From: Alphaproteobacteria bacterium
GTDB lineage: Bacteria > Pseudomonadota > Alphaproteobacteria > UBA828
Length of the DNA stretch: 64,000 nt
Direction: 5' to 3'
NCBI GenBank assembly: GCA_965221125.1
Contig: CBDCRW010000004.1
Span: forward strand, 512,001-576,000
A program made the position numbers and the translations under genes. Below the pieces are notes generated by a model. The model saw only the letters and a list, made by a program, of their open reading frames with translations, was not told where the DNA came from and did no database searches. Shown here one piece after another: positions 2,760 through 8,773 of this stretch (the stretch's first letter is position 1; every line of letters starts with the position of its first letter).

Positions 2760-3707
2760 CTATATGGGGGCGGCCGGCAGCCGCGCCAGGCGCTCGGTCA
2801 GCATGGCGAAGAAGCCGTCGGCATCGACGCGCTCGAGCACGCGGGCGTTGGCGGCGCCGCCGGTGCGGCCGTAACGGTCACAGACAGTGCGCCCGAAGCA
2901 GTGGCCGTCGCCCAACTCGACGTCGACCCGCATGGCGCGGCCCTCGAAGAGATCCGGCGCCAGCAGATAGGCGATGACGCAGGGGTCGTGCATGGGCGCG
3001 CCGTGGTGATAGGCCTCGACGTTCTTGGCGCCGTAGAGGTCGAGCATCCCGCAGACCGCCGCCGCCGGCGGGCTGCCGAGCGCGCGGATCGCCTCCAGCC
3101 TGGGCGGCGTCGCGATCGCCTGGTGGGTCACGTCGAGCCCGATCATGGTGAGCGGTGCGCCGGCCTCGAACACCACGTGCGCGGCGTGGGGGTCGGCGTG
3201 GATGTTGAACTCGGCCGCAGGCGTGACGTTGCCGAGGCCGAGCGCGCCCCCCATGGTGACGATCTCGCGCACGTTGGCGAGGACGCCCGGGTTCTTAACG
3301 ATGGCGAGCGCGACGTTGGTGAGGGGGCCGAGCGTCGCCAGCGTGATGGGCTCCGGCGCTGTGCTCAGCGTGTCCACGAGATAGTCCACCGCATGGGCCG
3401 CCTCGGCCGGGCGGCTCGGCTCAGGCAGGTCGGCGCCGTCGATCCCCGTTTCTCCGTGGATGTACTCCGCGCTCACCGGCTCGCGCACCATGGGCCTCGG
3501 GCAGCCGGCATAGACCGGCACCTCGGGGCGGCCCGCCAGATCCCTGATCCGGCGCGCGTTGTCCTCGGTCCTGGCCAGCGGCACGTTGCCGGCGACGGCG
3601 GTGATGCCGAGCAGGTCGAATTCCTCGGCGGACGCGAAGGCGAGCAGCAGGGCGACGGCGTCGTCCTGGCCGGGGTCGCAGTCGATGATCAGCGGTCGTG
3701 CGCTCAT
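2760..3707 (-). CDS. Inosine/uridine-preferring nucleoside hydrolase
   Basis: IIDCDPGQDD, GPLTN, AEFN and HDP motifs. Confidence 0.93.
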   Translation of the reverse strand: MSARPLIIDCDPGQDDAVALLLAFASAEEFDLLGITAVAGNVPLARTEDNARRIRDLAGRPEVPVYAGCPRPMVREPVSAEYIHGETGIDGADLPEPSRPAEAAHAVDYLVDTLSTAPEPITLATLGPLTNVALAIVKNPGVLANVREIVTMGGALGLGNVTPAAEFNIHADPHAAHVVFEAGAPLTMIGLDVTHQAIATPPRLEAIRALGSPPAAAVCGMLDLYGAKNVEAYHHGAPMHDPCVIAYLLAPDLFEGRAMRVDVELGDGHCFGRTVCDRYGRTGGAANARVLERVDADGFFAMLTERLARLPAAPI

Positions 3708-3946: not shown

Positions 3947-4251
3947 TTAGCGCGGGCTTGCCATCCCTGTGCCCCGGTCGCCGGATCGAGGGCGGTCGTC
4001 CGAAGATGCCTCTTCCGGTGGATCGCCGTTGGGCCCGGCGGCAGGATCGGCGCTCTCTTCGCCATCGGCCTTGTCGTCGACTCCGTGCCGGTCGATCGAA
4101 TTGGCCGGGTGGAAGGCGATCCCGTGGCCGCCGGTGCTGCCCTCGCCGCCGTCGGCGCCCTTCCACCAGGCCTCGGCCGCCTCGCGCACCGCGTCCCAGT
4201 CCAGCTCGAAGCCCAGCCCCGGCCGGTCGAGGACCGGCAGCATGCCCCCTT
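3947..4251 (-). pseudogene. 3' fragment of IS-interrupted mandelate racemase/muconate lactonizing enzyme family gene
   Basis: LPVLDRPGLGFELDWDAV is a typical enolase-superfamily C-terminus; it joins in frame with the 6342-7378 fragment when the IS is removed. Confidence 0.88.
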
Positions 4252-6341
4252 CAGGAACATTTTTTAGTCATGGCTGAGAGGGCGGGATGACCGAGAGCGG
4301 GCAGGCTTGGGCCGATGAAGGTCCTGGCCGAGCTTGGCTGGGCGGCTGCATGGGGTCCGCGGGGGCCGGTAGGGCTCGGTTTTCGGGCTCGCCGGGCAAA
4401 GCGATCCCGCCGCGCCGTTCGACGGCGCGTCCCGTCGCGCTCTGCGACGCGGTTACGCCCGCAGGATCATGCAGCGGGCGCGATCAGGATCGCGTCGAGA
4501 GCCTCCTGGGCGCGGGCGGCATAATGCCGGTTGGCCTCGGGCAGGAAGCGGAAGCGCCCGTCGCAGCGCACGATGGCGATGGCCGCGTTGGTCAGGCAGG
4601 AGAGATTGCGCGGCAGGTGGCGCACGTACGCCCGGCAGCGGTCTTCGTCATAGGTGAAGTCGCGCACGTAGTGCAGCCGGTTCTCGATGTGCCAGTGATT
4701 GCGGACCAGAGCCAGAAGCTCCTCGGGCCCGGCGCGGTCTGCGCCGAGCGAGGTCAGGCTCCAGGTCACCTCGACGCTGCGCTCGCCGGTCTTGAGGATC
4801 TCGCGCTCGCGTTCGATGCGCATCGCCTGGCGGCGTCCGTGAAGGTTGGCGTAGCCGTCCCATTCGGCAGCGGAGAGGTCGACGACGGCGCAGCGGCGGC
4901 GCTCGATGCGGCCATGGCCCTTGTCGACGGTTTCGTGCCAGGGCGCGTCGGAGAAGTCGATCGCCTTGAGGTCTTCGAGGATGGTCTCCTGATTGTCCTT
5001 CACCGCGGTGACCACGTAGTCGGCGCGACGCCCGAGCAGGCAGCGCGCGGTCTCGTGCTGGGCGTGCATCGCATCGAGGGTGACGGTCCGGCCTGCGAGG
5101 TCGAGACTGCTGGAGAGTTCGCGCACGGCGGGGATCTCGTTGCTCTTTCTATCGACCTCGACCTGTCCCAGGACCATGCCGGTCTTGTGCACCAGCGCCG
5201 CGACCATCATGCGCCGCCCGTCTTCGGTCTGCTTCGAGGCGCCGCGCAGGTCCTTTCCGTCCATGGCGACCGGGGCGTGCGCGCCGTCGTGCTGGCCGGT
5301 CCACCGGCCGATGGCGTTGTCCAGCGTCTCCGGCGGCAGGGCGGCGAGGATGTTGTGGAAGGTGGTGATCGCGGGCGCGGTGTAGCGCTTCTTCGAAGGG
5401 CTCCAGAACGCGCCGACCGCCTCGAGCTGCTCCTGCGAGAGCAGGGCGGCGAACTGGGCGAAGGCTGTCGAGCCCCGGTAGCCGGCAAGGCGGGCGGCGA
5501 CGGCAACCGCCAGCACGGTCTTCAAGGGATAGCGCTTGCCCCGGGCATGGCGGCACTCGGGCACCTCGCCCAGGCACTCGAACAGGCTGCGCAGCCGGGG
5601 CGCCGTCATCGGCTCGCTGTGTTGCTCGGCGTTCCAGTTCGCCGGGATCTCGGCCCGGCTCAGCGCTTCGGCGGCGCCATCGCTAAGTTCGAACACGAAG
5701 ACCTCCTTGGGCTGGCCGTGGTGGCGCCAGCGCGGAGCAGCTCCGGGGTCACGGGCAAAGCCGCGCGTCATCCCCAGCGAGCGCCAGTTCGACGCGCGGT
5801 AGCAGGTGCCGGCGAAGCGCGCGGGATCGACGAAGGTCTCGGCCAGGAGCGCCGGGTATCCATGCACCGCCTGGGTGTCCGCAGACAGCCGCCGCAGGCT
5901 CAGCCCCAGAACCCGCGAGGCCAGGTTGGGAACCCGCTCAGGCGTCAGGATCACGAAGCGCGAGTTGTTCGCGATCAGATGCAGGCGCCGGAACTGCTGC
6001 TCCGCCGACCAGCCGATCCAGCGGTCGCGCGCGGCCAGCTTGAACGCGCCCGGCTGCCAGCCGATCAGGGCGAGCCAGGTCTCGCCATGCACCGCGACAT
6101 GGCGCAGCCCCTTGCCGACGACGCCGTGGAATCGCAGGTAGTGGTGCTCCTCCACCAGCCGGTCCCAGCGCCGGTGCTCCCGCGCGCCCCAGGTCGGGCG
6201 CACCGTGACCGCACGCAGATCAATGGACGAATCCAGGCCCGGCAACGTCGCCATGGCCGCTACACTGCCACAGCGAAAACGAAATGACCAGCGCCGCGAT
6301 CACCTCACGCCGCTCGCCGGGCGGACAAAAAACGAGCCCTG
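4252..6341 (-). mobile_element. ISAs1-family insertion sequence, 2,090 bp, with 10-bp target site duplication
   Basis: ATGCCCCCTT at 4242-4251 and 6342-6351 flanks the element; imperfect terminal inverted repeats CAGGAACATTTTTTAGTC and (reverse complement) CAGGGCTCGTTTTTTGTC. Confidence 0.93.
4467..6254 (-). CDS. ISAs1-family DDE transposase with N-terminal DUF4338 (DruA-like) domain
   Basis: C-terminal ISAs1 motifs AMDGKDLRG, SNEIP, TLDAMHAQ, VKDNQ, GHGRIERR, RNHWHIENRLHYVRD; N-terminal HHYL, RDRWIGW, NNSRF, NLASRVL, ETFVD, GTCYRASNW typical of DUF4338. Confidence 0.9.
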   Translation of the reverse strand: MATLPGLDSSIDLRAVTVRPTWGAREHRRWDRLVEEHHYLRFHGVVGKGLRHVAVHGETWLALIGWQPGAFKLAARDRWIGWSAEQQFRRLHLIANNSRFVILTPERVPNLASRVLGLSLRRLSADTQAVHGYPALLAETFVDPARFAGTCYRASNWRSLGMTRGFARDPGAAPRWRHHGQPKEVFVFELSDGAAEALSRAEIPANWNAEQHSEPMTAPRLRSLFECLGEVPECRHARGKRYPLKTVLAVAVAARLAGYRGSTAFAQFAALLSQEQLEAVGAFWSPSKKRYTAPAITTFHNILAALPPETLDNAIGRWTGQHDGAHAPVAMDGKDLRGASKQTEDGRRMMVAALVHKTGMVLGQVEVDRKSNEIPAVRELSSSLDLAGRTVTLDAMHAQHETARCLLGRRADYVVTAVKDNQETILEDLKAIDFSDAPWHETVDKGHGRIERRRCAVVDLSAAEWDGYANLHGRRQAMRIEREREILKTGERSVEVTWSLTSLGADRAGPEELLALVRNHWHIENRLHYVRDFTYDEDRCRAYVRHLPRNLSCLTNAAIAIVRCDGRFRFLPEANRHYAARAQEALDAILIAPAA

Positions 6342-7378
6342 ATGCCCCCTTGCAGCGAAAGGCTGGGTTGCTTGACGATGTCCCAGGCCAGGAAATTGTT
6401 CATGTACTGGTTGCCGTCGTCCAGGTTGGGCGTCACCGCCGCCACGTGGGACGCCGCCACGGTGGTGATCCCGGTTTCGTGAAGGCCATGAATGCAGACG
6501 TCGATGTTGGCCGCCTCCGCGATGTGGGCCACCTTGCAGAAGCGCAGCAGGCCTCCGGTCTCGTGCAGCCCGACGACGATCAGGTCGGCAGCGCGCAGGC
6601 GGCAGAGGTCGAAGGCCTCGCCCAGCGCAATGACGCCCTGGTCCGCCGCGATCGAGACCGGGCTCGTGGCCCGGACCCGCGCCAGCGCCTCGACGCTTTC
6701 CGCATCGATCGGCTGCTCCACGACTTCGATGTCGAAGCGGGAGAGTTTGCGCAACATGCGGGTGGCCTGGACCGGGTGCCAGCGGCCGTTGGGGTCGAGA
6801 CGCAGGCGCTTGTCGGGCCCGATGGCGGCCCGGACCCGGGACACGATCTCGGCGTCCAGATCGTCGCCACGCCCCACCTCGACATAGATCACTTCGTGCC
6901 CCGACGCCGCGAGCCGTGCGGCCTCGCTCGCGATTTCGCCGGCGCCATCCCCCTGCGGGAAGCCGAAGTAGCGCACCTCGTCGCGCACGGCGCCGCCAAG
7001 CAGGCCATGAACGGGGCAGCCCGCCGCCTTGCCCATGGCGTCCCACAGCGCCATCTCCAGCCCCGCAAGCGCCTTGCCCGCGAACGTGGACGCCCTGGAC
7101 GCTTCCTCGCGCCCGAACAGCGCATTGTAGGCGTCGCCGATAAGGCGGGCGTTCTCGAACGGGCTGCGCCCGACACAGAAGTCCGCCGCGAGCGAAAGAT
7201 GGGCGCGGACGGCGTCGGCGGACGGCGTTGCAATCGACTCCCCGTAGCCGACGACGCCTTTATCGGTGTGGACCTCGACCAGGATTACTTCGGCGCCGTG
7301 GGTGACGCCCTGAGACCAGTGAAAGGGCTGCTCGTAGGGGATCCAGAGCGGCGTCGTCAGAACCTCGCTGATCTTCAC
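6342..7378 (-). pseudogene. 5' fragment of mandelate racemase/muconate lactonizing enzyme family gene (IS-disrupted)
   Basis: GTG start at 7378 after GGAGGAAGG; motifs GYGE, EMALWD, RLDPNG, VEQP, AADQ; reading frame runs into the IS at ...SLQGG. Confidence 0.88.
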
Positions 7379-7576
7379 GTCCCTTCCTCCGGCGCACGAC
7401 ACCTTCGGGTGGTCCATTCCGAATACTAGTTATGCGGGCCGTCTAATGCCATATTCGATATGCTGAATTATCAATAATGGCAGCAATGTCGCCTCCCGAC
7501 GCGGGTACGGCCAGCCTTGGCGGCAGCGCGATCTGCCGGGCGCGGGCGCGGTATGTTCGATGTGCTATGGTGAGCC

Positions 7577-8773
7577 ATGACCCGCTCCGGCGCCCGCGAC
7601 GTGGCGCTCCTTGCCACCTGCCAGGCGCTCTTCCTCACCTCGATGTCCGCGGTGGTGGCCGCGGCCGCCCTGATCGGGCACCAGCTCGCCGATACCAAGG
7701 TGCTGGCGACGCTCCCCATCGGCATTCAGTTCGTGATGACGATGGTGGCGACGGTGCCGGCGTCGCTGCTCATGAAGCGCATCGGGCGGCGCGACGGCTT
7801 CACCGTGGGTGCCGGCATCGGGCTTGCCGGCGCGCTGCTCGGCTTCTGGGCGATCATGGAAGCGAGCTTCCCGCTCTTCTGCGTCGCGCTCGCGCTAATC
7901 GGTGCGGCCAATGGATTCGCCCAGTACTACCGCTTCGCTGCGGCGGATGCGGCGAGCGAGGCCTTCAGGAGCCGGGCGATCTCGCTGGTGCTGGCAGGCG
8001 GCGTGATCGCCTCGGTCGGTCCCCTGCTCGCCGACTGGTCCAAGGACCTCTTCGCGCCGATCGCGTTCGCAGGCGTGTTCGCTACCATGGCTGCGCTCTA
8101 CGTGGCCACGCTGGTGGTGCTGCGCTTCATCACCATCCCGCCGCCGGACGCGGAGGAGCGCAGCAACACGGGCCGGCCGCTGCTCACGATCATGCGCCAG
8201 CCGACGTTCATCATCGCCGTGCTCGGCTCCCTCGTCGGCTACGCGATGATGTCGCTGCTGATGACCGCGACGCCGCTCGCCATGATGTTCTGCGGCTTCG
8301 GCTTCTCCGATTCGGCGCAGACGATCCAGTGGCACGTGCTCGGCATGTTCGCGCCCGCCTTCGTCACCGGCCACCTGATCAAGCGCTTCGGCACGAAGAC
8401 GATCATGGCCTGCGGCGCGCTGCTGATCGGGCTCTGCGCCGCAACCAACCTGCAAGGCATCGCACTGGCCAACTTCCAGGTCGCGCTGGTTCTGCTGGGG
8501 GTCGGCTGGAACTTCCTCTTCACCGGCGGCACGACGCTGGTGACCGAGATTCACAGCCCGGCGGAGAAGGCGAAGACGCAGGCTGCGCACGACTTCACCG
8601 TGTTCACCGGCGTCGCGGCGGCGGCGCTGCTCTCCGGCGCGCTGCACGAGGCCGTGGGCTGGCAAACGATGAACTACGCCGTGCTGCCGTTCCTCGCGAT
8701 CGTGCTCGCGGGGCTCGCCTGGCTCGGGCTGACCGGCCGCCGCGCCGCCGCAACCACGACGGCGGCGGAGTGA
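7577..8773 (+). CDS. MFS transporter
   Basis: About 12 hydrophobic segments; MKRIGRRDG loop, YRFAAAD and IQWHVLGMFAP motifs. Confidence 0.88.
   Translation: MTRSGARDVALLATCQALFLTSMSAVVAAAALIGHQLADTKVLATLPIGIQFVMTMVATVPASLLMKRIGRRDGFTVGAGIGLAGALLGFWAIMEASFPLFCVALALIGAANGFAQYYRFAAADAASEAFRSRAISLVLAGGVIASVGPLLADWSKDLFAPIAFAGVFATMAALYVATLVVLRFITIPPPDAEERSNTGRPLLTIMRQPTFIIAVLGSLVGYAMMSLLMTATPLAMMFCGFGFSDSAQTIQWHVLGMFAPAFVTGHLIKRFGTKTIMACGALLIGLCAATNLQGIALANFQVALVLLGVGWNFLFTGGTTLVTEIHSPAEKAKTQAAHDFTVFTGVAAAALLSGALHEAVGWQTMNYAVLPFLAIVLAGLAWLGLTGRRAAATTTAAE

Follow-up and report, generated by a model that had tools for sequence, protein, structure and literature searches.

This report concerns a mobile element in a 64,000-nucleotide stretch of alphaproteobacterial DNA (contig CBDCRW010000004.1 of assembly GCA_965221125.1, positions 512,001 to 576,000), which we call the window throughout. 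Between window positions 4252 and 6341 lies a complete insertion sequence of the ISAs1 family, 2,090 bp long and with its gene on the minus strand. The protein it encodes is an ISAs1 transposase fused at its N-terminus to a domain predicted to adopt a GNAT fold, referred to below as the N-domain, for which the best solved-structure match is the phage Mu protein Mom.

The element and its insertion site

The element is bounded on both sides by ATGCCCCCTT (4242–4251 and 6342–6351), a perfect 10-bp target-site duplication. The two copies are identical, and the probability that 10 nt agree by chance at two given positions is about 1e-6 (4^-10). On the plus strand, the left end starts at 4252 with CAGGAACATTTTTTAGTC; the right end, read as the reverse complement from 6341, starts with CAGGGCTCGTTTTTTGTCC. 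These sequences belong to imperfect terminal inverted repeats located at 4252–4271, on the side of the 3' end of the gene, and at 6322–6341, upstream of the gene (reverse complement CAGGGCTCGTTTTTTGTCCG). The two ends are identical at 12 of 20 positions in an ungapped count and both start with CAGG, the termini being CAGGG and CAGGA. Relatives align over positions 1–2090 of the element, and the terminal ~20 nt at each end (at the left, the last ~18 nt) are kept among diverged copies. The window holds a single occurrence of the 19-nt end motif, against 0.01 expected by chance. No second copy of the element is found in the 64-kb window by tblastn, and the G+C content of the element is 69.6%, compared with 67.6% for the window.

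A single intact open reading frame (ORF) of 595 aa occupies 4467–6254 on the minus strand. The length of the element, its perfect duplication, its CAGG ends and this ORF were all described in a first-pass annotation of the same DNA, and each is confirmed by reading the sequence and by script.

Members of the ISAs1 family, as ISfinder describes them, have CAGG(G) ends, terminal inverted repeats and target duplications of 8–10 bp, and are about 1.2–1.5 kb long. The window element resembles them in its ends, its repeats, its 10-bp duplication and its single ORF with a full-length ISAs1 DDE transposase. It differs in size, at 2,090 bp (2,067–2,090 bp among relatives), and in the ~225 additional N-terminal residues of its transposase, which include a separate, enzyme-like domain. 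The first-pass annotation was right to call it oversized; the excess is due to the region coding for the N-domain, and we do not take size as disqualifying.

The transposase part is itself complete. The NCBIfam equivalog for ISAs1 transposases, NF033564, matches aa 247–561 over profile positions 1–313 of 314 (E 9.9e-61, 205.6 bits against a cut-off of 70), from which it follows that the first ~225 residues are extra. Pfam places DDE_Tnp_1_assoc (PF13808), the usual N-terminal region of ISAs1 transposases, at aa 226–319 (5298–5579, minus strand) and the catalytic domain DDE_Tnp_1 (PF01609) at aa 329–543 (4626–5270, minus strand). Residues D332 and D394 are invariant in alignments A1 and A4, the latter comprising 31 full-length sequences, and E524 is invariant in A1. 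Judged from these invariant columns and the known motif, D332, D394 and E524 are likely to form the DDE triad. The predicted full-length structure has a mean pLDDT (predicted local distance difference test) score of 85.5 and a predicted template-modelling (pTM) score of 0.61. In a fold search, its C-terminal part matches the Tn5 transposase (1muh, E 6.7e-10). A linker at aa 206–225 (5580–5639, minus strand) separates the transposase from the N-domain and is predicted to be disordered, with pLDDT below 50 at aa 210–219.

Between the end of the ORF and the left end of the element is a 215-nt non-coding tail. The motif TAGGGCTCGGTTTT at 4370–4383 falls within this tail and resembles the opposite terminal repeat; only its GAAAAC core is kept in diverged copies. 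It may be a subterminal transposase-binding site. No RNA family match was found by Rfam over 4000–6600, and a sigma-70 scan of 4200–6400 gave no promoter-like site. One terminator-like site was found in 4200–6400, which is not above chance.

The gene split and inactivated by the element encodes a member of the MR/MLE enolase superfamily. When the element and one copy of the duplication are deleted in script, a continuous host ORF of 456 aa is restored; the interrupted ORF has 370 aa. The upstream fragment (6352–7417, minus strand) matches MR_MLE_N and MR_MLE_C, the match running to profile position 196 of 219, and the C-terminal remainder (3947–4241, minus strand) is in frame once the element is removed. 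The restored ORF ends in an unusually long, low-complexity C-terminal tail. Beside the host gene are genes for an inosine-uridine nucleoside hydrolase (2760–3707) and a major facilitator superfamily (MFS) transporter (7577–8773).

Fold of the N-domain and its relation to Mom

The N-domain spans aa 1–205 (5640–6254, minus strand). Pfam identifies it as DruA/DUF4338 (PF14236) at aa 25–166, with an E-value of 1.7e-21 over profile positions 59–220 of 297. With a gathering cut-off of 27 bits, the whole protein scores 77.1 and the N-domain by itself 80.4, so the family assignment made for these ~200 residues by the first-pass annotation holds. The motifs HHYL, RDRWIGW, NNSRF, NLAS, ETFVD and GTCYRASNW all lie within aa 37–157.

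We modelled the N-domain with AlphaFold2 using alignment A2, which contains the query and 86 of 150 listed matches, picked for covering most of the domain. The model has a pLDDT of 93.4 and a pTM of 0.87. Foldseek returns the S124A variant of phage Mu Mom (8bv8_B) as the top PDB match, with E 3.3e-7, template-modelling (TM) scores of 0.55 and 0.60, and 17% identity. At E ≤ 1e-3 the PDB gives 315 matches; the listed ones are GNAT acyltransferases, most of them acting as N-acetyltransferases on proteins or small molecules (Naa60, RimI and SpeG, for example). With the full-length model, the first GNAT match is again Mom. Among predicted viral structures, the best matches are phage GNAT-like proteins of ~190–200 aa, one of them, at rank 5, named Mom. 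The model therefore gives the N-domain a predicted GNAT fold, and what had been offered as a guess, a GNAT/Mom-like domain, is supported by the ranking of Mom ahead of the other GNATs and by conserved counterparts of its key residues. Overall, the N-domain is a Mom-like GNAT domain that is conserved, folds independently and is held to the transposase by a flexible linker.

Many of the viral matches are "endonuclease-like" fusion proteins. These fit a report (PMC7824862) that jumbo phages carry Mom domains fused to restriction-endonuclease domains. PMC10853773 terms DUF4338 a GNAT domain and describes its fusion to DndF in defence contexts. Like the window protein, both place a GNAT module on a protein that acts on DNA; unlike them, the partner here is a DDE transposase in a mobile element rather than a restriction or defence protein.

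The mechanism of Mom provides a basis for comparing residues. According to PMC13219725, Mom modifies N6 of adenine in double-stranded DNA with glycine taken from Gly-tRNA(Gly). The same paper reports that R111, S124 and R151 are essential, that H58, Y59, D149 and Y159 are important, and that deleting a helix-turn-helix-like (HTH-like) insertion at residues ~175–209 abolishes activity. The 231-aa Mu Mom sequence that we aligned (AF083977) is offset by 10 from that numbering; we adopted this offset because all seven residues then fall on the right residue type. Alignment with hhalign pairs H38/Y39, S113, D143, R146 and Y152 of the N-domain with Mom H48/Y49, S114, D139, R141 and Y149, which are H58/Y59, S124, D149, R151 and Y159 in the published numbering. 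Six of the seven key residues are in this way paired with identical, conserved residues, albeit in an alignment with weak statistics. For the seventh, R99 was paired with R101 (R111) by local re-alignment of NSRF against LNRM. Conservation is 90% or more for H38, Y39, R99, S113, D143 and Y152 in A2 as well as A4, and R146 reaches that level in A4. The two proteins also share a distinctive motif around the β4–α3 loop and the helix motif Y-x-A-x-N, and the motifs common to both read P-N-x-x-S-R and F-x-D...G-x-x-Y-x-A-x-N-aromatic. Mom itself is a stand-alone late phage gene, in contrast to the N-domain with its attached transposase.

The residues at aa 74–86 (about 5997–6035 in the window) contain the motif RDRWIGW and are specific to the DUF4338 family. 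This segment is a candidate determinant of substrate specificity.

The N-domain belongs to the same Pfam family as DruA of type I Druantia systems but covers only part of the profile, and its close relatives are essentially all attached to ISAs1 transposases. Membership of a Druantia system was considered and rejected. The full protein has no PADLOC match at E ≤ 0.01, and the N-domain alone matches the PADLOC DruA model with E 0.003 over aa 65–92 only. The neighbours scanned are the nucleoside hydrolase, the MFS transporter and a molybdo-hydroxylase, with none of DruB–E among them. The DruA label is not to be taken as a link to Druantia defence.

Relatives, copy number and constraint

The fused architecture is abundant in databases, where it is automatically annotated merely as an ISAs1 transposase. 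There are 2,095 homologues at E ≤ 1e-3; among the best 120, nearly all combine PF14236, PF13808 and PF01609 in ~595 aa. Where a source name is given, as it is for a few, the protein is labelled "ISAs1 family transposase" and comes from Gemmatimonadota, Acidobacteriota and Boseongicola metagenome-assembled genomes (MAGs; Alphaproteobacteria). Searched alone against representatives of 50%-identity clusters, the N-domain has 6,432 matches at E ≤ 1e-3, 3,312 at E ≤ 1e-10 and 490 at E ≤ 1e-30. Pfam finds DruA in all 87 A2 sequences, DDE_Tnp_1_assoc in 61 and DDE_Tnp_1 in 24. All 28 mid-length members scanned (413–736 aa) have both DruA and DDE_Tnp_1_assoc and, judging by this domain content, are truncated forms of the same architecture. 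Stand-alone close relatives were sought among proteins of 123–394 aa, and no named stand-alone family was seen there; these proteins are highly similar to the N-domain, and many keep part of PF13808, so that we read them as truncated copies.

When genomes representing their species were scanned, at least 599 matching stretches emerged, of which at least 569 are confirmed relatives. Fetching the loci of the best 80 stretches yielded 68 loci, 56 of them in a single alphaproteobacterial MAG (CBDCME01) and the remainder in other Alphaproteobacteria, a Gammaproteobacteria MAG (98% identity) and a Dehalococcoidia MAG. The three-domain homologues, the loci in one MAG (at least 56) and the 28 mid-length relatives together rule out a one-off fusion; the other copies keep the N-domain. 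Neither outcome named by the first-pass annotation as refuting its reading, a domain that fails to match DUF4338 or a GNAT-like fold and genomic copies lacking it, was therefore observed. We regard it as near certain that the element represents a distinct, widespread sub-lineage of the ISAs1 family, about 2.07–2.09 kb in length. Plasmid records matching the protein number 859. Only two, both from Candidatus Thiodictyon, cover at least 80% of the protein including the N-domain; the other plasmid matches listed are ordinary ISAs1 genes that align only from about aa 142–228 on.

When the window element is compared with the 68 loci by blastn, many copies align across positions 1–2090. We counted copies whose match spans 1–2090 and for which both flanks are available (n = 61), leaving out partial, truncated and nested copies, those starting at position 2 or 5, and a copy at a contig edge (L001). 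Perfect 10-bp duplications flank 46 of these 61 full-length copies (2,067–2,090 bp). Among the other 15, several are off by one or two bases or lie in tandem or nested arrays. These duplications are direct evidence for transposition of the fused element as one unit, as the first-pass annotation had proposed from the window copy. Because 58 of the 61 copies belong to one MAG, the tally mostly documents a single burst, and it indicates that the fused form underwent a burst of transposition in CBDCME01.

The N-domain has also evolved together with the transposase. Across the 465 sequence pairs of A4, pairwise identities of the N-domain and of the transposase are correlated with r = 0.92, and identity averages 57% in the N-domain and 45% in the transposase. 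Ratios of non-synonymous to synonymous substitution rates (dN/dS, Nei-Gojobori) against four diverged copies with dS above 0.17 are 0.16–0.25 for the N-domain and 0.13–0.26 for the transposase. For the near-identical copy L001 the values are 0.48 and 0.11, respectively, from very few substitutions. The N-domain has co-diverged with the transposase under purifying selection, and the dN/dS values mark it as an integral, selected part of the protein.

Several arrangements in the related loci are recorded here as observations in their own right. Head-to-tail tandem pairs of a 2,080-bp relative occur in MAG CBDCME01 at four loci (L008, 823–4993; L058, 2914–7084; L011, 1905–6076; L016, 2913–7082), and in each the same 10-bp sequence is found to the left of the first copy, between the copies and to the right of the second. 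Possible causes are insertion into the duplication made by a resident copy, unequal exchange, or an artefact of long-read assembly. At L043 (1913–6076), the 10-bp duplication of one copy, GCGGCAGGGC, includes the opening 6 nt of the copy next to it and so places the insertion 4 bp from the resident end. This case hints that element ends attract new insertions. Two degraded copies are also present. In L003 (3001–6877), element positions 1–1057 and 1048–1204 are separated by ~2.7 kb, a gap suggestive of a further insertion within the copy; in L031 (2999–4468), only aa 179 onward is left.

Possible roles of the N-domain

Our preferred reading is that the element is a mobile ISAs1 insertion sequence whose Mom-like GNAT domain is an active acyl- or aminoacyl-transferase acting in cis on nucleic acid. 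Taken whole, we find this reading somewhat probable. Its identity and mobility part is near certain, and its enzymatic, cis-acting part, which we infer, has about an even chance or less. The element inserted into the enolase-superfamily gene and made the 10-bp duplication in doing so. Under this reading, the N-domain would be catalytically active as an acyl- or aminoacyl-transferase and, because it is tethered to the DNA-binding part of the transposase, would act locally on nucleic acid, at the element ends, the donor site or the target site. That DNA-binding part may stand in for the HTH-like insertion of Mom. The resulting covalent local mark could limit re-cleavage or re-insertion, or could link transposition to the availability of charged tRNA or acyl-CoA. 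A genome-wide defence enzyme is an unlikely role for the N-domain. The first-pass annotation suggested that the domain may be a DNA modifier that regulates transposition or protects DNA; both the activity and these roles are putative.

The target of Mom has the consensus S-A-S-N-Y, and the CAGGG and CAGGA termini of the element do not fit it. For this reason we do not claim the terminal adenine as a target. That the transposase carries its own Mom-type base-modifying enzyme, placing an acyl or aminoacyl mark on DNA at the ends or the insertion site with a charged tRNA as a possible donor, strikes us as rather doubtful.

A number of results weigh against the preferred reading. The Pfam Mom model (PF25680) scores 13 bits on the window N-domain (E 0.082), below its cut-off of 27.1, and matches 5 of the 87 A2 members at E ≤ 1e-3, the best at E 2e-6. 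The hhalign comparison gives E 0.016 against Mu Mom and E 0.0026 against a 20-sequence Mom-family profile (probability 11.6%, 111 columns, 24% identity), with probabilities across both runs of 2.8–11.6%. PDB sequence searches with the N-domain or the A2 profile reach neither Mom nor any GNAT; it took the comparison of folds to bring them up. At the level of sequence, the link specifically to Mom is weak on its own. In Foldseek, Mom leads ordinary GNATs by a factor of about ten in E-value, at TM scores of only ~0.55–0.6. To pair R99 with R101, the local alignment has to be moved by one residue, which hhalign did not do. The 13 residues at ~aa 74–86, which hold the invariant R76, D77, G81 and W82, are gapped in Mom in the hhalign alignment; with this segment lacking a Mom counterpart, the substrate may differ. 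The alignment stops near aa 162, and aa 158–199 of the model consist of β strands and short helices only, so that no counterpart of the HTH-like insertion of Mom is seen in either the alignment or the model. The cis action and the regulatory role, finally, are what we purely infer.

Some of the same results fit a non-catalytic N-domain, in which the GNAT fold would be re-used for dimerisation or synapsis of the transposase or for binding DNA or a host factor. Tn5-like transposases function as dimers, and the DDE part of the window protein is Tn5-like; Mom is itself a tight dimer whose monomeric mutant is inactive, as stated in PMC13219725. The weak sequence similarity to Mom and the lack of a visible HTH-like counterpart point the same way. 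The positions of the key Mom residues are nevertheless invariant or at least 90% conserved down to ~38% identity, and a purely structural role would not call for just this set. Conservation is as high at many other positions, which keeps the argument from being decisive. We consider a non-catalytic N-domain unlikely. The alternative that the acyl acceptor is a protein or a charged tRNA (by auto-acetylation of the transposase, on a nucleoid protein, or by acetylating aminoacyl-tRNA as TacT does), and that the N-domain in this way controls transposase activity or host growth, draws on the predominance of protein and small-molecule N-acetyltransferases among its solved GNAT neighbours. It draws also on the tRNA binding by GNATs that TacT and FemX exhibit, according to PMC13219725. 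The closest structure and the shared motifs point to Mom rather than to protein acetyltransferases, and it seems improbable that a transposase with dozens of copies would carry a growth-arresting toxin. We judge this alternative to be the least probable of those considered, and highly improbable.

A further alternative is that the N-domain is a defence or anti-restriction cargo, modifying DNA genome-wide as Mom does for Mu or acting like DruA. Transposases are generally produced in tiny amounts, which fits local rather than global action, and the PADLOC results and the metabolic and transport genes among the scanned neighbours give no sign of a Druantia system. All 28 mid-length relatives and nearly all of the top 120 homologues carry the N-domain in one chain with the transposase, not as a separate gene, and at least 56 copies in one genome are more than a defence gene would need. 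The idea gains from the placement of the N-domain in Pfam DruA/DUF4338, from the shielding of Mu DNA against restriction by Mom (PMC13219725 and PMC7261163) and from the fusion of DUF4338-type GNAT domains to DndF in defence contexts (PMC10853773). Weighing both sides, we regard such a cargo role as very unlikely.

We found no description of the fusion, or of a link between DruA and Mom, in the literature searched; ISfinder and preprint supplements lay outside that search. In the papers found to mention both DUF4338 and transposases, DUF4338 itself comes up in the DndF fusion or in a gene-table entry, not in connection with a transposase. Karambelkar 2020 does not mention transposase, DUF, Pfam or fusion, and the YprA/Druantia preprint does not mention GNAT, DUF4338, acetyltransferase or transposase. 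The function of the N-domain appears to be unstudied.

Host DNA methylation is known to regulate transposases, as in the control of IS10 and Tn5 by Dam; a transposase with a nucleic-acid-modifying enzyme domain of its own was not described in the literature searched. The spread of the lineage across several phyla and its dozens of copies in one genome imply that the N-domain pays its way. The 2026 finding that Mom uses Gly-tRNA to modify adenine provides a concrete biochemical assay. If the N-domain is inactive, the element would show that a transposase can take up a GNAT fold as a structural part. If the transposase does carry a base-modifying enzyme of the Mom type, a transposon would chemically mark itself or its targets, a previously undescribed form of control over its own movement. 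The N-domain would then also offer a functional handle on DUF4338/DruA and a pointer to the role of the unexplained DruA protein in Druantia.

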